DNA from: Curvularia clavata
Taxonomy: Eukaryota
NCBI GenBank assembly: GCA_023920165.1
Contig: CP089275.1
Coordinates: 3,348,001-3,412,000 of the forward strand
Length of the DNA stretch: 64,000 nucleotides
Reading direction: 5' to 3'
This document shows positions 2,519 to 54,600 of this stretch, piece by piece (the first letter of the stretch is position 1; every line of letters begins with the position of its first letter). A program made the position numbers and the translations under genes. The notes under the pieces are model-generated. The model worked only from the letters and a program-made list of their open reading frames with translations, had not been told where the DNA came from and made no database searches.

Positions 2519-3355
2519 TTACTTGGACTCCTCCTCAAAACACTTCTTATACTCCTCCCACAACTCCTTAACCCCCTTCCCACAGCACTCCTTCCACACC
2601 CTCTCCTCCTCATACTTACACGCCCTCAACGCCCCATTAATCCTCCTCACCACATCCTCGCCATGCTCCTTCTCCAACCACTCCAGAAAATACCCCGTCC
2701 GCTCATACCCTGCATCCCACTCGCAATCAGTCCTCCTCTTCCAATGCGGCGGCGCATACCCCGCCTTCAACCGCACCCAATCCGCAACACCCTCTGTCAA
2801 CCCCGTCGGCGCGGTACCCAGCCCATCACGCTGCCAGCAATGCACCATCTCATGCACTAGCACACCCATAATCTCTTCCTTCTGCCGTGCTGGCGCGACG
2901 GAGGAAATGTACGATGTGTTGAAGTGTATTTCCTTGTGTTCGTCGTCTAGCTCCAGACCCGTCGTGTATGCCACGCCATCCATATCGCGCAGAACAAGTG
3001 TCACGGAACGTGTACCTGGGATGTCGGATTGTGGCATCCCGCGGTACAGGTGGGTGAGCACGGTGTCTACGGCGTGGGAGAGGGCGTCCGAGGCATGGAT
3101 GAGGCGCAGGAAGGCGTGTGCGCCGGCGGAGGACACATCGCGGAGTTCGAGGCGCAGGAGGGGGGTGCGCGCAGGCTTGACTGTGGGTGCAGAGGGAGCG
3201 GGCGCGGGGACGGGCGTGATGTGCAAGGTGGGATTGAAGGGGTGGGTTGGGGGTAATGTGGTGGACTGCGGGGCGGGTGGGTCGGACGTGTCGGTGATGT
3301 TGTTGGCGTTGCTTGCGGAAGACATGATTTGGTATTGTTTGCTGGGTTGAGACAT
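2519..3355 (-). CDS. BSP/PBSP (basic secretory protein family) HExxH metallopeptidase-like protein
   Basis: ORF contains DMDGVAYT, EIMGVLVHEMVHCWQ, LTEGVADWVRLKAG and WDAGYERTGYFLEWLE. The start codon is uncertain (3355 or 3325). Confidence 0.82.
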   Translation of the reverse strand: MSQPSKQYQIMSSASNANNITDTSDPPAPQSTTLPPTHPFNPTLHITPVPAPAPSAPTVKPARTPLLRLELRDVSSAGAHAFLRLIHASDALSHAVDTVLTHLYRGMPQSDIPGTRSVTLVLRDMDGVAYTTGLELDDEHKEIHFNTSYISSVAPARQKEEIMGVLVHEMVHCWQRDGLGTAPTGLTEGVADWVRLKAGYAPPHWKRRTDCEWDAGYERTGYFLEWLEKEHGEDVVRRINGALRACKYEEERVWKECCGKGVKELWEEYKKCFEEESK

Positions 3356-3722
3356 CAGTGGTGTGGGAATGAGATGCGTCTGTTGTTTGGTGGGGATAAG
3401 GACTGGTGACCGGGTCTTAAGGAATGAAGTTATTTGTTGTACTTGTACACCTAAGGGGAAGACAGTAGTAATACGTACGGACTGTATACCGGTACGTGCC
3501 AGGGGTCGCATGCTTCCGAGTCAGATAATGCGGGCAATTAGAAACCTTGTTTTGACGAATGGTGTATCGAGTGTATTCTCCTCTATATGATCTATATCTC
3601 TTCTCATCTTGTGTACGTTTGCTCGTGCCTTGCTGTTGTTCTTGTTGAAACATTTGGTCCTGTGTAAGTCTTCCGTCTATATGACACGTACTACGCCCCC
3701 TCGTTCTATCTACGATATTTCT

Positions 3723-42971: not shown

Positions 42972-45900
42972 CTACGTCGGTAAGGCTCGGTCCATACTTT
43001 GACCTAAACACATCTCATAGTACATCCCTCTCTTCGCAAGCAAGTCTTGGTGGGCTCCACGCTCCACAATACTTCCCTTGGCAAACACAAAGATTGTGTC
43101 TGCATCCTTTATGGTACTGAGACGATGTGCTACTGCAATAGTTGTGCGTCCACTCTGCGCTTCCTCAAGTGCTGATTGGACCACTCGCTCAGACTCGGTG
43201 TCAAGGGCAGATGTGGCTTCGTCAAGCAGTAGCAGGCGTGGCTCCCGTATCAATGCTCGGGCTATTGCAATGCGTTGGCGTTGCCCTCCAGATAATTGCG
43301 TGCCTCTGCTACCACACATGGTTGCGAAACCATTCGGTAGAGATGTGACAAAATCATAGATGTTGGCTTGTTTGGCCACATTCTCAACTTGCGCATCGGT
43401 GACATCAGTCTCCATACCCATGGCTATGTTGTCACGAACCGAGCCTTGGTACAAGACAGGTTCTTGCTGGACTAGCGAAACACTACGACGATATTTGCGG
43501 GGACAGAGATCCGCCAAGGACTGATTGTCGCAAGTTATTCGACCTGTAACTGGATCGTAGAATCTCTCAAGAAGAGATACCATTGTCGATTTCCCACAGC
43601 CGGATGCGCCCACAAGTGCGATGAAGTTGCCCGGCCGTACGTCAATATCGACACCTTCTAGGACTTTGGCATGTGGCCGAGACTCGTACGCAAACGCAAC
43701 ATCTTGCACTTCAATATGCGCAGGACCCTTGTCCTTCTCGTCGTCGGATGGCGGCTTAGAAGCATCCTCCTCCACGGCCGGTGTTAATCGCCTCAACCAG
43801 AACACGTAGTTTGCCGCTGTAGCTGCTTTGGTCAGACTGGTTGTGTATGAGAAGAACCCTGCGGCTGCTTCTCCTGAAAAGATAACTCCGATGAAAACGG
43901 TAAAAAATTGTGTGGTATTGTACTCGCCGGTACTGATGAGGCGACCACCGTACCAAAAGCCCTACATTTTGTTAGTTGCATCTCTCCGGACATTAGCACA
44001 TGAGATGATACATACCAGAGCCATAGCCAGAAACGAAATAGATTGCGACAGTGCGTACCAGAACATGGTCCACACTAGAGCCCGGATGCCGTCTCTTGCG
44101 ACGTGACGCAAACGGTCCTCATATCGTGCAAGAACATGTCGCTCAAGCGCGAGACTCGAAACTGTACGAATGGCGGAGACTGCTTCAGAAGCGAGAGCGG
44201 CGCTACTGGCAAACCGCTTTCCAGTAAGTTCCTCAAGTTTGAATTCAAGCCGAATCCTGAGATAGCCAGCGAGTACGATTGGCGGTAGTGCTAGAGGCAT
44301 AAAAGTCAGCATGGCTTCCTCATTGGATCTGAGAAACCCACCTCCGAAAACGACCACAAGACCCAGCTTCCATCCAATAGCAATAGCAAGAATGGAGCTG
44401 GACACAACATTAACAACATTGATACAGATGAGCATCAAGTTGAAGCCCATGAGCTCGCGTAGGTTGTCGGGATATCCCGAGAGATTTGAAACAAGCGCGC
44501 CACTAGCATTGCTCTGGTCGTCGAAGAAGGCCATGTCTTGCTTGAGGACCAGATCAAATATCTCGCGTCGGTACTTTCTTCCCACGACTTGTGCTACAAT
44601 GTTGCTTGACCAGCCAACAGAAGCGTATACAGCTAGATTGCCAAGAGCAACAATGAAAAACATGAGGGACCAGAAGTCACCCTGGGATACGGCTCGGCCG
44701 GGAGGTAACTCAAAAGCTCTGACAACACGCGAGAAGAGTATAGCTTGGGCAGGGAACGTCGCTCCCCCTGCGAGAACCGCGATTAGTAGAACAAGGAAGC
44801 ATTTCCAAAGCTCACCCTGTTCCCTGAGAATCAGAAAGGTGCACTTCACCAGATTGTAATTGATTCCATCTTTCGTCGACTGTTTTACCTCATGATTCGT
44901 GCCGGATGCTTGGGTCTGCGTACGTACTAAATCAACCCTCTCTGTAGTCTGATCCTGCTTGAACTTTTCTTCATTCTGGGTCTGGCCAAGATCCTGAGCT
45001 CTGACGAGGCGAGTGTACGCCCCATCTCGCGCCAAGAGTTGTTTGTGTGAGCCTTGTTCCACAACAGCACCGCTGGCCATGACAACAATGTTATCCGCAT
45101 TACGGATGGTAGAGAGACGATGTGCGATGACAATTGTAGTACGTCCTTCAGAGACGCGCTCCAAGGCTTGCTGAACGATCTTCTCGGCTTTTGGGTCCAG
45201 GGCGCTGGTGGCCTCGTCTAAGAGCAAAACAGTTGGCTCTGAAACTATACTCCGTGCGATTGCTATCCGTTGCTTTTGACCACCTGAAAGGTTTGCTGCG
45301 CGCTCACCAAGCTGTGTGTCGTAGCCCTGTCGGACGTCAGCGCTGCTCCCTGATGTATAACACACAAAGCCAAGGAACCCACTCTAGGTAGTCGTTCAAT
45401 GAACTCGTCAGCATAAGCATCTTTACAGGCTTTTTTCACCAATTCTCGCTGCTCACTTTCAGGAAGATTGGCTTTTTCGGTGCCGAAAAGGCCGAATGCG
45501 ACATTTTCGTATACTGTTCCAGAGAATAGAACGGGCTCTTGTTGAACCAGACGTATTTTGGTCCGCAGCCATGTGAGGTTGAACTCTCTTATATCTGTAC
45601 CATCCAGAGTAATTATGCCACTAGCCGGATCGTACCAACGTTCGATCAAGCCGATAATAGTGGACTTGCCGCTACCTGAGGCTCCTACGAGAGCAGTGGT
45701 TTTACCAGCGGGTGCTGATACAGTCAGGTTGTTTAGCACCGTGATATCGGGTCTCGCAGGGTAGGCAAAACTGATATCCTTAATCTCGATGACGCCCTTA
45801 CAGATGGCGGGTTTTTTCCCATCCTCGTTCAGTGGATCTATCTCAGATTTGCGATCAATGGTTTTGAACAACTCGTCTGCAGACGAAGATGCCTTCGTCA

Positions 45901-47191
45901 ACGCCAAAATCTGAGGAGCTATTGTCGTCATTGCAGTAGCTGCCACAATCACAGCCAATATGACGGTAAATACGTCCCCTATTGAGATGTCAATGATTTT
46001 CATCGCCAACTGTTAAGACTTTGTTCTCAGTTAAGAAAAAGATCGACATACCACTCTGTTTGATCTCTCCTCTTGCAAACATCCGAATACCTTGCCAGAA
46101 GGCCAATCCATAGCCACAGTAAACGCAGAAGAATTCGGTGGAAAATAAGACAGCATAATTGGGTGATTTCTTCATGCCTACATCCATTGCTTCACCGAGA
46201 ACTTTGTCGTACTTGCGCGATAATAAAGGATGCAGCCAAAAAGCATGAACGGTGCGTATGGTTGAGAAAACTTCTTCTGCAAGCTGTCCGGCTCTTGAAT
46301 AGATTGGTAGCAGCTGGTCCTCGTTCTTAGCATCAATGCCTACGCAGATGCCAACCGCTATCAGGATAGTGGGAACGATGCTAATCGTGATCAAGGCGAG
46401 CTTCCATTGTACGATGAAGGCGATGATGAAAGCTGATACGAATGTAGATACACCCTGAATGGTGAGTGTAAGCTTTTCAGAGATGCCATTGTTGACATTA
46501 TTCCCGTTGCTGGTAGCTTGCGATGTAACAGAAGCAGCCTCATCTGAATCAAAGTAGGCAATGTTCTGCCGAAGAATATGTTTGATGAAGTCTAAGCGCA
46601 AGGCCTTGGTGGTGCGTATGGCGGCTATGGATACGAAAGTCTGGCGACATGAGCATTGGCATATCAAGATACAGGGTTCTCGATGGGGTTTACATACAGA
46701 GTGAATATATACTAAAGCGAATTTTCCAATGAAGAGATACAAAAAGTAGACAGTATACTTGTTCACTTCGGATCGATACTGTGCTGGGGTGATACCACCA
46801 GTAGAAAAGCCGGTAAATGTGGAAACAAATCTAAATTGTCAGCGAAGACCTTGATTCTGCTGCATCACAGGATACTAACTTCCCAAAAACAAGATCCATG
46901 AGCGGAAGTAATGTCCCAGCAGCGATGGCTGCAACAAACGCAATGATATTCAGAGTCCAACCGATGCGATCTGTATACCGAAAGACGCGCTGGAACGGTG
47001 TCAATAGGAATAGGAAATCTAACGTTGGTATTCATAGTCCGCTAACTTACCACATAACCACCCATGCCACCGCTTTTAGGCGCCTGCGATGTAGCATCGC
47101 TATCGTGGTCTGAGAATGTGCTTCCCTTGGCATCTACAGATACTTGTGTCTCAGATTGAAGTGGCTGAGCCTGATGATCTTCAGAAGGCAT
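42972..47191 (-). CDS. Full-length ABCB (MDR/P-glycoprotein-like) ABC transporter, multi-exon
   Basis: Two NBDs: GASGSGKS / [13 protein letters not shown] / [11 protein letters not shown] and GASGCGKS / [13 protein letters not shown] / [23 protein letters not shown] order. Starts MPSEDHQ at 47191. Confidence 0.95.
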
Positions 47192-47293
47192 GATTGCAAA
47201 CAAAGCTGATGCCGTTGAACATCACACCAGCTGGTACAGCTGAACAGTTCTACCGAAGTTGGTCAAGTGTGCGCTTCAAATACTATACAGAGT

Positions 47294-47778: not shown

Positions 47779-50574
47779 ATGGAAGATGAGGACATGGATG
47801 GGTCCCCCGACGGGGGCTTGTCTAAGCGTGCGGTAAGTACACAGCAGGCAGCCCCTAGAGCTTGGCTCGAGGCTGCTTACAGTGATCCACCCGCTGACGA
47901 TCCACAAAACAGTGTGATAGCTGCCGCACGCGTAAGATACGCTGCGATCGAGCCGTGCCATGTTCGAACTGCAAAGCGAGCAAACTAGGTATGAAACGCT
48001 GGCTTCGCTATGCACATAACAGGCCGTTACTGAGAAGCGCAGCTTGCAAAACAACCGCTCCTCAGCAGAAGGCTCAGCGGCAAAGGGTCCACATCTCTGA
48101 AGAATAGTACGTGTTTCAACAAATTAATTATTCTAATTGGCTGTATTTGCGAAAATCCAGCCATATCCACATGGCTTCGCAAAAGCAAACCATGAAAACC
48201 CAGTCCGGTTCCATTTGGTGGCCAGTTATAAATTACGACCAATGACATGAATGCTGACCTATTACAGCGAGAAGAAAATAGACCGAATTGAAGATCGTCT
48301 AGCAGGAATCGAAACCGTCCTAGCCAATCTTTCGTCAAAACTCGGCAGCATTGACCTTTCCAAAGACATCCATGAATCCAGCAGCCAGTCACGTTCCAGC
48401 CGGGTTGGGCGAAGCCCAGGTAGCGGTTTACAAGAAGCTCCTACCCCTGCACCGTTTGAGGGTGAGAGCTCGATCAATATTCAGTCGGTTTATGCTCGTG
48501 AGATGCTAGCTCAGGTGATTGATAACACACCGTCAATTGGCCAAAATGAAGAAGTCAAGACAGCACTCACAGCACTCTCGGAAATGGTATCACAGCCGAG
48601 CCAGACTTTAGCTCCAAGCAACCGCTTGATCAATCGTTCCCTTTCCGAGGTGGATCCTGCAAGGCTTGAACAGCCTCCATGGACGGAGGTTTGCAAGGCT
48701 TTTGATGCAGCTATGAGTTGAGTTCCAATACACCTCGTTGCTTGCACGCTACTGACTTACCAGGTTATCCTACAATGGCATTTGCCGTCGTGTTTCCGTT
48801 CCTTAAAATGCCAAACCTGAGGGAAATCTTCTACGATGCATACCACAATGCTGGCACATGTACCGCTGCTCGGCGGGTGCTCACTTATGGCATCCTAGAG
48901 AAGATCTTTGACGAATTTATTGCATTCCCCCCTGCGGGTATGGACATAAGCGAATATGCTACCTACACAACCATATGCAAACGGCAGTCAGAGGTAGCAC
49001 TGAGCCAACTCGACCTGTTCATGCCAGCAAGCTATGAGAACATCATGGCCCTGGTACTCGGATCAGCACAGGCAGTCGAGATGTGTAAGCCCTCTCTTTG
49101 CTGGGTCTTGATATCGGCTGCAGCGGGTTTGTGTATAAGCCTAGGATATCATCGCATCAACACCATGATTCACGATACCCCTGAAGAGAAACAGTCGAAG
49201 ATCTACATCTTCTGGATGATATACATGTTCGACAAGACTTTGTCGCTGAGACTGGGTCGATCCAGCATCCTGCAGGACTGGGATATATCCCTGCCCTTCG
49301 TGCACGAGAGTCCCCACGACAAATCAGCGGCCAAACCTACTCAAATGTTGTCCTACTGGGTCAAGGTTGCCAGGATTCAGGGATTGACATATGAGAAACT
49401 CTTCTGTCCCGCCTCCTTCATCAAAACCACCGAGGAGCGTATGGCTACTGCAATGGACCTGATTAATGGCATGAACCAAGCGTGGTATGAACGTGACGAT
49501 GTAAAAGCCTTCACTCGCGCAAAACTAGGCAAAAATGCCAACGGGGTCACGCAACAATCAACTGGAATAGGGCCCAGCCCTAACGATACCCCACTACCGT
49601 CGCAAATAAATGAGTACATACAGCGGTCGCTGAAGGAAAAACCAGAATCCAACCAGTATATTAAGAGTATGTCGCATAATTTGTTTCGGCATGATATGTT
49701 AGGCTAATTCCACCAGATGCATACGACCGCGTTGAAGACATATTCTTTTATTCTGACGTCGTCTCGCACTACTCGACGTGTGCACTCATACAGCGCTCAG
49801 TAAGCCCAGGCAATATGTCCTTCAACAAGGAATGCCTTGAATCATCGCGAGCAGCTCTTGAAGCTCATAAGAGGGCTTGTTTACAGTTTAACAAGAAAGG
49901 TCAAGAGGAACTCTGGTCTGGATATGTACACTGGTCTATCCTACAGGCGCCATTTGTACCGTAAGCTGCTTCACTCACTTTCCTAGACGTTCCGAGCTAA
50001 TTGACGCAGGTTTATTGTCATCTTTTGCAACGCGATCCAACAGGCAGACACATCTGATGTAAGCGCGGACCTCCAGTCACTATCAGAGTTTATCACTAGT
50101 CTCGAGTCCTGTCGCACTATCTCTGAAGGTGCAGACAAGCTTTACAGGATGTGCCATCTCTTCTTGCGGGTCGCAAGGCTTTACGTGATGGCGAAGACAC
50201 AAGATGCTGCTTTGCGATCACAAAACTTTACCCAAAGCACTCAACCCGGGTACTACAGCACTGCAGACGCCGCACAGCTCGACCTCAACGCCATGTCACA
50301 ATTTGATCCATATCTCAATGCACTTGGACTATTACCCAACTCGACCTGGCCAGCGGCTGATTACAACATGAATACCGGTGATCCAGGTGGCATGCAAGCC
50401 TTTCCGCAAGACCAAGCAACCGGCAACAATGCGAGTATAAGTCAAATGGACGTTGGATTCGGACCATCAGGTGTTAATCACAACGCTATGCAGGACTGGT
50501 TCTCTGGCTCTATATACCTAATGAACCTGATGGAGCCGGGAGACGATCTGCAGATGCCGGACCTGAATTTGTAA
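47779..50574 (+). CDS. Zn(II)2Cys6 transcription factor with fungal-specific TF (MHR) domain, multi-exon
   Basis: Spliced CDSCRTRKIRCDRAVPCSNCKASKLAC cluster; IFWMIYMFDKTLSLRLGRSS middle-homology motif; acidic/hydrophobic C-terminus. Confidence 0.92.
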
Positions 50575-51268
50575 GAAGATCAATTCAACGAAGAATCGGG
50601 CATGTCGATGCCTCCGGCGTCTCGAGGCAAGTCGATGATGATTTAACGAAGTGTTTTTAAATAGCGTGTTTCCTGATGAGAGCTATACCATGGATGATAT
50701 ATCAATACCCAGCTTTCAGTTTCCGCTTCTGAAGACGCCTTGTGTCCTGTGAGATCAATTCGCTACTGCTCTTCTTAGCAACATCACTGTCCAGTTCGGA
50801 CACTTACGGCGTTACTTTTACTGCATGCATCCGGAGTCGAGTTGTCACTTAATCTACTGACGCATCCGCCAGGCTGTCACACTCCCCCATACACCACAAT
50901 AAATAGCTTCCCATCACCGCACAATAGCCTGACTGTAAATGCCGATAAACCTTCTACCAAATACTACAAATACCACGGAGAAACCAGTCAAGCTGAAATA
51001 TCGATCAACAGCTCCATTCATTTCTATATATTAACCTTGCTACAGCCCATCCACAAAGGTACGATCGCCTTTGGTAAAAAAACACAATATCAAAATAAGA
51101 AAACTCCAATCCTGTACAAGCCATCACCCAGTTACTGTCTTGTTGAGAATAGTGCTGACACTCAAGTAGCTTTGTTGACGATATGCCGTATGGAGATTAT
51201 CCCACTGAACGAATCCTCCATTACAGCTACCACTTGAGTGTCGGGTATCATGAGACCAACGAGGGGGC

Positions 51269-52355
51269 TTAGTTGCCAGCCTTCTTGCCCTTGCCCTTAC
51301 CCTTGGCGCCATTCTGGTGGTGGGGGTCACGGGCTTCGACTTCGACGTCACGGGCGTTCTTCTTGCCTTTGCCCTTACCCTTAGCACCGTTCTGGTGGTG
51401 GGGGTCACGGGCTTCGACTTCGACGTCACGGGCATTCTTCTTGCCCTTGCCCTTACCCTTAGCACCGTTCTGGTGGTGAGGGTCGCGAGCGACAAGGTCC
51501 TCCTCGTCCTCATCCTCAGCCTCGACGTCGCGAGCGTTCTTCTTGCCCTTACCCTTGCCCTTGGCGCCGTTCTGGTGGTGAGGATCGCGAGCTACGAGGT
51601 CATCCTCCTCGTCTTCGTCCTCGACGTCGCGGGCGTTCTTCTTGCCTTTGCCCTTGCCCTTGGCGCCATTCTGGTGGTGGGGGTCGCGAGCTACGAGGTC
51701 CTCCTCGTCCTCATCCTCATCTTCAGCCTCGACGTCACGGGCATTCTTCTTGCCCTTACCCTTGCCCTTGGCGCCGTTCTGGTGGTGAGGGTCGCGAGCT
51801 ACGAGGTCATCCTCCTCGTCCTCGTCCTCGACATCGCGGGCGTTCTTCTTGCCCTTGCCCTTGCCCTTAGCACCGTTTTGGTGGTGGGGGTCACGGGCTT
51901 CGACTTCGACATCGCGGGCATTCTTCTTGCCTTTGCCCTTACCCTTAGCACCGTTCTGGTGGTGAGGGTCGCGAGCTACGAGGTCATCCTCCTCGTCCTC
52001 GTCCTCGACATCGCGGGCGTTCTTCTTGCCCTTGCCCTTGCCCTTGGCGCCATTCTGGTGGTGAGGGTCACGGGCTTCAATGACGACATCGCGGGCGTTC
52101 TTCTTGCCCTTGCCCTTACCCTTAGCACCGTTCTGGTGGTGGCGAGCTTCAAGGTCACGAGCTGAAAGAGCGGCAACGAGGTTGGATGCTTCTTCGTGCT
52201 ACAAGAGTGTAAGTCAGTGCTACAGAGAAGAGATCATAAGATGAACATACAGGCATACGGGCCTCAACGGCGTTATCAACAACTTGCTTATTAGGAACAA
52301 CATAAGCTGAGGCAGTGGCACCGAGGGCCAACAAAGTGATGGTGGAGAAACGCAT
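51269..52355 (-). CDS. Secreted 10x tandem-repeat peptide precursor (KEP / dikaritin-type RiPP precursor candidate), 344 aa, 2 exons
   Basis: Exon 1 52355-52251 encodes the signal peptide MRFSTITLLALGATASA. Intron 52250-52199 (GTATGT..CTGAC..TAG). Exon 2 52198-51269 is open for 310 codons and carries 10 copies of HHQNGAKGKGKGKK between acidic spacers ending in AR. Confidence 0.92.
51272..52141 (-). repeat. Coding tandem array of 10 cores with 78-108 bp period
   Basis: The (c/t)tggtggtg landmark recurs at about 51314, 51392, 51470, 51572, 51671, 51779, 51878, 51956, 52055 and 52133. All spacings are multiples of 3. Confidence 0.95.
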
Positions 52356-52508
52356 TTTGAATGTGTTGATTAAATGTTCGAAATTGAATGGATTGAACGA
52401 GAGGATCTGCCTGCAGAGACGAAAAGAGATGGACTGAAGGAGCAAGTTGTGAGAAGGAATGAGCACGTTCAACGTTGATGCCCTTCTCACCTTGGATGTC
52501 GAATTAAC

Positions 52509-52514
52509 TTTATA
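52509..52514 (-). promoter_or_regulatory. TATA box of the repeat-precursor gene
   Basis: TATAAA on the minus strand about 155 bp upstream of the ATG, followed by a CT-rich leader and a CAAAATG start context. Confidence 0.55.
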
Positions 52515-53625
52515 GTTTCGACCTCCGTGCCATGTGTAGCCTTACACTGACTTATGCATGGATATCTCTGAGACGCCTTGCATTGCCAGCGGAATTGAAT
52601 ACGGAAGGTCGGGCCTGCCTCAGCCACGTGTAGTCTAGCAAGACATCATGGATCGCAGGGCCTGGAATAGCGGGTAGTCAAACGTACGGAGTTGTGACAG
52701 GGTGTTATCTCCACCAATAATGTCGTCCAAGGAGTACAAGCACTGCGAAAGCTTGGTGCCTCCCATGTGATTGGAACCGAGTCAATGCTTGACAGACAGC
52801 ACGGTCTAACCTAGATCGTGGTCTTGGGAACGAATCATGAAAATGTCGATATGTTACCATGACAGCAATCTACGGAGATTCTGTGGGGTTCAGACAGGCG
52901 TCTTGACAGGGTCCCAATCTAGCCGCGGCGACACGCGCAGAACTCCGCGTCATTTAGAAGGGTCGGCATTCCCAAGCACACTTTCGGTATCGATCCGTTG
53001 ATGGTATGCAGCACGGTTGTTCCAAGTGTGTGTCAAGTCGAACCGACAGCTACATGTTTTGCCTAGCGGCGCCAAGCTGAAACCATGGTGTGGAATATGA
53101 ACAACGATTCTTGGCTAAGCGACTATCTTGAAACCCAAGCGAAGACTCAGCCAACGGGAGGGCTGAGACCATCCGCTGTCCCTGTCTCAAGAATGCTTGG
53201 TAAAAGCTTGATTGCTGTTTGACATCGCATTGCAAGGCTGCGCGCAGGCTATTGTTGCCTGGGGATGAAAAGTTGGGCTTGACTGGCTGTGGCGAAGCCG
53301 TCACAACGGACCTGTTTCATCCACTCCGCGCTCCTGCGTCAGTTGGAGTTCTGGCTGCGATCTTGACGTCGTTGCATTGACGGTTGGGGTTTCACGACGA
53401 GGAGGCACACTGTAAAGCACTATCTCCCCTACGTACCTTTTCCATTCGTCACATTTACATTTTTTTTTGTCTTTGTCAATTCGCTGAGCCGGTACTCTCT
53501 CTTTCCATCGCAGGTCGACCTACGTAATTTTTGTTTCTTCTTCCCACCTCCACATTATCTGTTTTCATTTACACATTTCTGCCTCGGGTTGACCATTCAC
53601 TTTGCTGTTGCCGACCGGATTCACC

Positions 53626-54600
53626 ATGGAGAAATACACAGATACCAGCTCACAAGATGTCGACTCGGAAAATGCGTCCCTTATGAACAACCAGACTCAA
53701 AAAGACGAAACTTCAAAACGACGACAAAGCTTTGTCTACCTCACACTCTTCAACCTCTTTCTCTTCACACTGTCCATGCTCTCGATGATATGTGCGGTGA
53801 TGTCGCAACGGGATTCATCAGGCAATGCGGCCGCTAAACTCATGGACCAATTCGATATTTTCTGTATGGCAACCCGTGTCTTCCTACGACAAGACTCGCG
53901 AAAAGAAGGAACAAACTAACAATTCCACAGCACCCGCAATGCATGAAATCGAATACAGCCACACCAAATTCTCTTTCGCCAACCCCCTCAACTCCTCCAA
54001 ATATGTCGGTACCAGCGAAGAGGTCGACAACGCCTGGTGGGACATTGCCTTCCGTAAGTCCCTCCTCACCCCCTTTCCTTCCCGCATTCTAATCTCACAC
54101 ACGAACTATAGTCCCCGACCAAATGGTCTCCAAAGCCGACTTCCCCAAGCTGCGCAAGCCCGCCGACGCACTTCAAGTCACGGACCCCAAGACAGGCGAG
54201 ACAGGATACCGTGTCGGCCTCGAAGTCTTCCATCAACTCCATTGCCTCAATCTCCTCCGCATGTCAACATATCCCGAGCACTATACCAAGGTCTGGTGGA
54301 GCGATACCGCGGATGAGTCGGCCAAGGTGCGCGCGCATTTGGGTAAGTTAGCCCCTTTTCCTTCTACCCCTTCTTCTCTCCAACTTCCATGGAAAACAAG
54401 GTAGCTAATGCAAAACAGACCACTGCATCGAGATCCTACGTGTAAACCTCATGTGTCTCTCTGACGTCAACGTCTTCACCTTCCATCCAATTGAAGGCCA
54501 AGGCTACTGGCCCGACTACGATAGCCACCACGTGTGCAGGAATTTCGATCGCATCAAAGATTGGGCGAAGGAGCATGCGATGCCCGCGGCGGATGTTTGA
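53626..54600 (+). CDS. DUF3328 / UstYa-family oxidase (fungal RiPP tailoring enzyme), 257 aa, 4 exons
   Basis: Exons 53626-53863, 53931-54053, 54112-54342 and 54419-54600 total 774 nt. N-terminal TM helix, VDNAW, EVFHQLHCLNLLR, HLDHCIEILRVNLMCLSD and HVCRNFDRIKDWA. Both HxxHC motifs are present. Confidence 0.95.

Follow-up and report, generated by a model that had tools for sequence, protein, structure and literature searches.

The 64,000-nucleotide stretch of the Curvularia clavata genome analyzed here (the window; contig CP089275.1) is fungal DNA with spliced genes. In it, a peptide precursor with ten identical cores, each starting with two His residues, lies head-to-head with a gene coding for a DUF3328 (UstYa) protein. 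The pair may form a two-gene cassette for a fungal peptide that the ribosome makes and that is modified after translation (RiPP), made of a signal-peptide precursor and a membrane-anchored DUF3328 enzyme. The reading that we favor, at slightly below even chances and on the strength of sequence comparisons, is that a copper- and O2-dependent DUF3328 oxidizes the His-His end of the peptide; the product would be a cationic peptide for secretion, whose head is constrained and probably binds metal. The oxidation is placed at that end because His-His is the only element that the relatives share. The features of the pair are the following, with positions given within the window:

51269 to 52198, minus strand: precursor exon 2 (coding 52198-51272, plus the stop), with ten units of the form xxxR/(DP)-core-NAR, acidic spacers between them, and core-AGN-stop as its end
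51281 to 52141, minus strand: the ten identical cores HHQNGAKGKGKGKK, from the translation
52199 to 52250, minus strand: precursor intron of 52 nt, GT..AG, from the gene model
52251 to 52355, minus strand: precursor exon 1, coding for the signal peptide (about residues 1-17), after which the pro-region begins with Tyr18-Val-Val-Pro
52356 to 53625, no strand: divergent intergenic region of 1.27 kb between precursor and enzyme, from the gene models
53626 to 54600, plus strand: DUF3328/UstYa gene of four exons (53626-53863, 53931-54053, 54112-54342 and 54419-54600), 257 aa
54231 to 54245, plus strand: first HxxHC copper motif, residues 161-165, intact in the alignment
54336 to 54426, plus strand: second HxxHC copper motif, residues 196-200, intact in the alignment and interrupted by intron 3

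The precursor gene model, on the minus strand, has its ATG at 52355 and its stop at 51271-51269, and its two exons encode 344 aa; only one of the eight splice acceptors tried yields the full 344-aa frame holding all ten cores. The core is composed of His, Gln, Asn, Gly, Ala and Lys only, with zero Tyr, Phe or Trp, exactly as the original prediction had described it. Nine cores are preceded by xxAR-DP and the first by LEAR alone. Asn-Ala-Arg and then an acidic spacer follow each core up to the last, after which come Ala-Gly-Asn and the stop, so that the last unit ends with G-K-K-A-G-N. The array, for which Tandem Repeats Finder scores reach 776, is well beyond chance expectation, and the back-translated core has ten exact match starts across the 32-Mb genome, all within this gene. 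Seven distinct DNA sequences encode the ten cores and all seven variable positions are third-codon positions, which argues that the cores are selected at the peptide level. With its signal peptide and its repeated units between kexin sites, the precursor has the make-up of a Kex2-processed repeat protein (KEP), the sites being monobasic xxAR (the extended motif) plus Lys-Lys and not KR. The calculated monoisotopic masses of unmodified peptides are 1658.91 for the core with NA, 1715.93 for the last unit and 1217.64 for a core cut ahead of Lys-Lys. It has no Pfam match. A direct homolog search with the precursor gave two matches only, both unrelated and of low complexity, and the ESM Atlas a single, uninformative match at 0.75; an exhaustive search gave 29 matches, 11 of which were accepted as His-His precursors. 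Core motifs and 6-mers sought in the full text of the literature had no relevant match. A 282-aa plus-strand open reading frame (ORF) at 51317-52165 was rejected as a gene, being the antisense shadow of the repeat.

Taken alone, the absence of Tyr, Phe and Trp from the core is unremarkable. At ordinary composition, the chance of a 14-mer without them is about 0.3, by simple arithmetic on background frequencies. Repeats without Tyr make up 34% in DUF3328-linked precursors, 65.6% containing it (PMC7329392), and His itself counts as an aromatic residue. The core cannot be that of a Tyr-ether dikaritin, a product that the original prediction had likewise ruled out. The statement that the single Tyr and Phe of the precursor lie in its leader was correct (Phe3 and Tyr18 are the sole ones, and Trp and Cys are absent from the whole precursor), with one refinement: judging from the sequence A-S-A/Y, Tyr18 is probably the first residue past the signal peptide, not within it. 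The N terminus is hydrophobic when judged by eye, and an equivalent of Tyr18 is kept in nine of nine Pleosporales-type leaders read.

The enzyme gene matches the UstYa profile (PF11807) with 61.8 bits for exon 3 (E = 1e-16) and 67.2 bits for exon 4 (E = 2.5e-18), for a cut-off of 25 bits. Its motif residues H161, H164 and C165 and H196, H199 and C200 are all present. DUF3328 proteins act in the lumen as dimers; they are binuclear copper enzymes that activate C(sp3)-H bonds with O2 and need these motifs (PMC12435403). The protein has one N-terminal membrane helix, with its hydrophobic peak at about residues 39-59, and its predicted structure has a predicted local distance difference test (pLDDT) score of 80.7. 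Database protein P0003, which its source assigns to Curvularia clavata, is identical to the gene model. A search of the PDB for solved relatives found none by sequence and none by fold at an E value of 0.001 or better. In RNA run X7, a contig piece spans 52251-53863, with both ends exactly at the predicted first donors of the precursor and the enzyme; this run shows spliced joints in neighboring genes and DNA run X1 is without them. The RNA contigs give neither an expression ranking nor strand information.

We retrieved 78 metagenome loci by the enzyme alone, not by the peptide, and detected precursors at them by a motif-blind repeat count. Thirty of these loci have at least 2.5 kb upstream of the enzyme. 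A multi-copy precursor on the opposite strand was found in 22 of the 30 and a single-copy one in one more (L060); all 23 are His-His-led and head-to-head with the enzyme, and no other repeat type stood beside the enzyme in these 30 loci. Near-duplicates inflate these counts, which correspond to about 18 distinct loci with a precursor and 5 without. We then pooled 67 precursors, namely that of the window, 19 from the loci and 47 database proteins. By comparison of their sequences, His-His is the sole element common to all relatives examined. Core position 3 is Thr, Lys, Gln, Arg or Ala in 355/355 units, to the exclusion of Gly and Pro; at position 4, Glu and Gly predominate (Gly in 119 of the 355). 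Asn at position 4 occurs in 1/67 precursors, at the window locus only, and the tails, rich in Lys, Gly and Ala, vary freely with a shifting register, the cores of P0118 being Lys-free. Chemistry directed at Asn, or at Lys in a fixed position, both of which had been put forward, is therefore unlikely as the chemistry of the family. From the first His-His onward, Tyr, Trp and Phe are absent from the window precursor and from at least eight other enzyme-linked ones (L032, L034, L042, L047, L057, L079, L051 and L026, the last two read in part). Many precursors (P0166-P0198, L002, L006, L009, L012, L015, L018) release a second, acidic peptide with a conserved Trp or Phe (G-3, a type described below) or His-Trp (Pleosporales); it is absent from the window precursor. 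In P0196, a G-3 precursor, Tyr-His replaces the His-His start in three of five units and there is other decay too, possibly as in a degenerating copy.

Among 366 His-His pairs in the 67 precursors, 353 directly follow Arg plus zero to five X-Pro or X-Ala dipeptides: 273 after one to five dipeptides and 80 directly after Arg. The P4 residue is Leu, Val or Ile in 260/355 units, which fits the extended Kex2 motif (PMC8528282), and the dipeptides fit the Ste13 rule (PMC6339444; PMC9769878). In the window precursor, Asp-Pro stands before nine of the ten cores. One kexin P-domain and two genes for dipeptidyl peptidase IV were found in the genome. From what is known of these enzyme families, housekeeping kexin would cut after the xxxR sites in the secretory pathway, and a Ste13-type dipeptidyl peptidase would then trim Asp-Pro. 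Since His-His directly follows a Kex2/Ste13-type site, His1 would become a free N terminus. This N-terminal placement of His-His is new to the present analysis. His-His, picked by the original prediction as the most plausible site, thus keeps its place as the best candidate, being both the only element common to the relatives and exactly at the predicted processed N terminus.

The locus is not an orphan. G-3 and G-8 were reported in 2020 as two abundant DUF3328-linked types with di-histidine motifs in place of Tyr (PMC7329392), and the locus is a further member of the family catalogued then; the novelty that the original prediction implied was overstated accordingly. G-8 (KEP type 15) has 49 members, with a DUF3328 neighbor in 45/49, and G-3 (KEP type 6) is DUF3328-linked in 57/64 (PMC7329392). 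We assign the locus indirectly as the local ortholog of G-8, through the accession neighbors of the orthologous enzymes and a Bipolaris maydis leader. Orthologs of the enzyme include EMD85981.1, EOA86240.1, EMD62336.1, EUC46313.1, OAL47548.1 and OAG06061.1; the accession numbers of these six adjoin type-15 precursors, in 6/6 genomes in which such a neighbor was looked up, and the genera of G-8 are those that hold enzyme orthologs. For Pseudogymnoascus F-4514, the table of PMC7329392 lists no type-15 row. The B. maydis precursor ENI01984.1 (P0130), beside the enzyme ENI01985.1, has a leader near-identical to that of the window precursor and a core with H-H-Q-G. Precursors with HHTEAQ belong to type 6/G-3, since four of the six accessions looked up are present in the table, all as type 6. 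No product, chemistry or function of G-8 was found in the literature searched, coverage of which excludes most subscription papers and preprint supplements, and PMC7329392 gives none.

The types differ in detail. The G-8 core is usually H-H-x-G and that of the window H-H-Q-N-G, and many Pleosporales relatives have a His-Trp element in their spacers, unlike the window precursor. G-3 resembles the window in having His-His after Kex2/Ste13 sites, a basic tail and a divergent DUF3328 of the same clade; it differs by its conserved HHTEAQIAAK core, by its listing as a separate type (PMC7329392) and by a second DUF3328 at five distinct loci. This second, distantly related DUF3328 lies 1-2 kb downstream of the enzyme (L026/L027, L042, L047, L052, L055). 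At loci of a third type, H-H-K-G-A-G (L060, L062, L069), the precursor has one or two cores and is accompanied by a convergent second DUF3328 (also at L064 and L065) and an M28 peptidase, which we presume resembles glutaminyl cyclase.

The enzymes beside G-8, G-3 and H-H-K-G-A-G precursors form one clade relative to 12 other DUF3328s (support of 93 in the Shimodaira-Hasegawa-like approximate likelihood ratio test, SH-aLRT, over 130 columns, in trees that are quick trees). The union of the three precursor types under one enzyme clade, read from these sequences, is a new contribution of the present analysis, as are the orthologs that lack copper histidines. All six motif residues are intact in the window enzyme and in 40/49 aligned orthologs; over all orthologs, 73/111 are complete and intact and 18 more are truncated. 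Orthologs without two of the four copper histidines occur in at least two patterns (L013, P0068, P0072, P0077, P0078 and P0079; P0076, P0080, P0082 and P0083). Those of Pleomassaria, Amniculicola, Lophiotrema and Byssothecium have lost His164 and His199. His196 read by tblastn across the intron is unreliable and was not counted except in L013.

As to what the oxidation at the His-His end might be, our single best guess, doubtful when taken alone, is closure of a ring from the imidazole of His1 to the beta-carbon of residue 3 (here Gln3). It is preferred by analogy, because H-H-X-G parallels the Y-X-I-X of ustiloxin-type cores and because position 3 always has a beta-carbon. Ustiloxin-type cores are Y-X-I-X, with Y-X-I-G in ustiloxin itself. 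The chances of beta-hydroxylation or desaturation of a His are fainter, and those of a His1-His2 link fainter still. In the known ribosomal DUF3328 products, the ring of a Tyr or Phe is linked to a further residue (PMC9233826). Precedent for a single enzyme comes from the epichloecyclins, which are made with one DUF3328 and without a tyrosinase in the cluster, probably through formation of a C-N bond (PMC10540207). A wider proposal, which we consider unlikely as a whole, is that one ancient DUF3328 clade installs a His-based ring or oxidation on N-terminal His-His peptides, with the substrate His-His supplying copper ligands, so that G-3, G-8 and H-H-K-G-A-G would be one class of secreted metal-binding cyclic peptides. 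If true, such a modification would be a first for fungal RiPPs, and substrate-supplied ligands would explain why enzyme lineages are conserved despite losing two of the four histidines.

Several observations weigh against oxidation at the His-His end. We found no DUF3328 acting on His in the literature searched. Seven of the 30 loci have no adjacent precursor (L036/L037/L044, with one enzyme sequence, L038, L039, L040 and L073), and four of the five distinct precursor-less enzymes nest inside the His-His clade. L036/L037/L044, L038, L039 and L040 encode intact clade enzymes, and L039 has the motif-bearing exon twice, about 2.9 kb apart. The database precursors came from similarity searches with His-His queries, which makes their His-His invariance circular; the position-3 pattern comes from few independent lineages, with Thr in 231/355 units, nearly all of one type; and the clade support is not starred, the tree rows having been picked by similarity to the window enzyme. 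At least one motif residue is missing in 9/49 aligned orthologs. In those of Bimuria, Paraconiothyrium, Paraphaeosphaeria and Didymosphaeria, which are 84-95% identical mutually and about 60% identical to the window enzyme, His164 is replaced by Gln and His196 by Tyr where the model is readable (that of P. sporulosa is not). In L013 (10373-10795), a single continuous ORF carries the two substitutions and lies next to an intact precursor of eight His-His units; the P. sporulosa gene, too, has a type-15 precursor as its neighbor. Alanine mutants of the HxxHC motifs abolish the activity of the DUF3328 enzyme CctR (PMC12435403). Since conserved orthologs have lost two histidines and retain their precursor, the partnership persists where a canonical two-copper site is missing. 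In that case, either the DUF3328 partner can be non-catalytic and the peptide a linear copper binder, or the substrate His-His replaces the lost ligands.

The first of these options, unlikely in our estimate, is that the secreted peptide is linear and unmodified: its N-terminal His-His would bind Cu(II) as an Xaa-His site and its basic tail would bind walls, membranes or polyanions, while the DUF3328 protein would load or buffer copper or bind the precursor non-covalently. The claim of the original prediction that any modification must target something other than an aromatic side chain presupposes covalent modification, and it is weakened to that extent by the precursor-keeping orthologs without two copper histidines. 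A linear peptide is consistent with the precise exposure of His1 by the processing sites, with the Cu(II) binding of Xaa-His peptides via amine, amide and imidazole, for which yeast alpha-factor is cited (PMC7503498), and with Ste13 signatures, which are reportedly typical of linear pheromone-like precursors and lacking in known cyclic-peptide ones (PMC6339444). Where two of the four copper histidines are gone, the partner is still strongly conserved, and other Pleosporales lineages lack a different pair (P0076, P0080, P0082 and P0083). However, linear pheromone precursors are almost never DUF3328-linked, as against the 45/49 and 57/64 of G-8 and G-3 (PMC7329392). In addition, most orthologs, the window enzyme included, keep the full catalytic motif, G-3 loci have a second DUF3328 as do multi-step oxidative clusters, and no non-catalytic role of a DUF3328 was found in the literature examined.

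Quite unlikely, in our view, is that His-His serves as an anchor that docks on or completes the copper site of the enzyme, with oxidation on its neighbor (beta-hydroxylation of residue 3) or in the tail (hydroxylation of Lys or Asn, or oxidation of a C-terminal Gly after a Lys-Lys cut). Enzyme histidines have been lost repeatedly in a clade with two histidines in its substrate, CctR places a hydroxyl group on an aliphatic beta-carbon (PMC12435403), and the Lys-Lys in the G-K-K-A-G-N end of the last unit could be a second cut site. Yet the tails have no fixed residue (Asn4 is limited to one precursor, the Lys register varies and some cores are Lys-free), and the G-K-K end is not general among relatives.

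We consider an aromatic substrate very unlikely. It would be the single Tyr-Val-Val-Pro at the pro-region start, the acidic spacers with conserved Trp/Phe that many relatives have, or a precursor or metabolite encoded at another site. In its favor, Tyr-Val follows the signal peptide in all nine Pleosporales-type leaders read, and the motif resembles the phomopsin-type core YVIP; some enzymes stand without a precursor next to them; and about ten further DUF3328 loci are present in the genome, one of them beside a Tyr-containing repeat precursor. Against it, this Tyr is present once only, and other lineages have Phe or His in its place or lack it; the window precursor and at least eight other enzyme-linked ones are free of Tyr, Trp and Phe once the first His-His is reached; and there is no tyrosinase among the scanned ORFs of the window. 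The locus with the repeat precursor (L080/L081; G000:C2:292238-298430) is classical and dikaritin-like, a DUF3328 pair flanking a Tyr-containing, Lys-Arg-separated repeat precursor.

A Pfam scan covered 80 of the 97 ORFs of at least 90 codons in the window. Among these 80 there is no tyrosinase, methyltransferase or second DUF3328, and the sole peptidase, of the BSP family, is encoded at 2522-3520, 48 kb off, so that the earlier statement that no tyrosinase, methyltransferase or dedicated peptidase is encoded nearby holds within this scope. The nearest other UstYa copy in a genome-wide search is about 1 Mb distant. Across the family, a scan of 105 out of 166 ORFs, drawn from 15 loci, found no recurrent tailoring enzyme. 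An ABC-B transporter gene (42972-47200, minus strand) and a Zn2Cys6-type factor gene (about 47800-50574, plus strand) are divergent, spliced and expressed. They were rejected as cluster members, being near the pair in Pleosporales-type loci only and no more often than the housekeeping gene MRPL44; in the 78 loci, many of them short, the factor occurs 6 times, the transporter 2 times and MRPL44 6 times. RNA contigs of the factor extend about 770 bases beyond its stop, into the 3′ end of the precursor (50574-51344, plus strand), and in X7 they have a plus-strand GT..AG intron at 51114-51169. This convergent overlap could couple or repress expression; contigs can also merge overlapping transcripts. 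Compared with public runs, the window has single-base indels at 48927, within an exon of the factor, and 54938 (DNA run X1) and at 53460 (X7, X11).

Many crop pathogens, endophytes and lichens have the family, most often with about one copy in each genome, and it is taken to span several ascomycete classes on our assumed class-level taxonomy of the relatives' genera. Such single-copy conservation suggests a general signaling or metal-handling role, not that of a host-specific toxin, and since the family is so widespread, the role of the peptide would belong to general fungal biology. The ribosomal DUF3328 products described in the literature examined close via Tyr or Phe, and Tyr is missing from a third of DUF3328-linked repeats (PMC7329392). 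With two genes, ten identical cores and an intact enzyme, the cassette is about the simplest system for asking what a DUF3328 does without Tyr, and the natural His-lacking orthologs offer a ready control for separating catalysis from copper handling.

Compared with the dikaritins (ustiloxin, phomopsin, asperipin-2a, epichloecyclin, victorin), the locus has in common a signal peptide, a multi-core Kex2-processed precursor and a clustered DUF3328, and asperipin-2a and epichloecyclin need one DUF3328 only. Several dikaritins need a tyrosinase, a methyltransferase or cluster peptidases. The dikaritins close through Tyr, or Phe for victorin (PMC9233826), whereas the window core has no Tyr, Phe or Trp; their precursors are reported to be without Ste13 signatures (PMC6339444), whereas the window precursor has them. 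With the clustered DUF3328 and without a Tyr or Phe in its core, the locus is not classed as a classical dikaritin. Of the DUF3328 enzymes compared, ApnU presumably acts on a polyketide. CctR, ApnU and AprY share with the window enzyme a single membrane helix, a luminal helical domain and the HxxHC(x)nHxxHC pattern; unlike the window core, the substrate of CctR is a non-ribosomal peptide and that of AprY a Tyr core (PMC12435403). Linear KEP peptides of the alpha-factor type resemble the window peptide by Kex2 and Ste13 processing and by His at position 2. Pheromone genes have no DUF3328 neighbors, whereas the window precursor adjoins one; it carries the Ste13 dipeptides of alpha-pheromone-type KEPs and lacks their pheromone motif (WxW or a Cys pair). 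Finally, noursin shows that a crosslink of a His side chain can yield a copper-binding RiPP, although it is a bacterial lanthipeptide, formed by a non-oxidative addition (PMC10206099).
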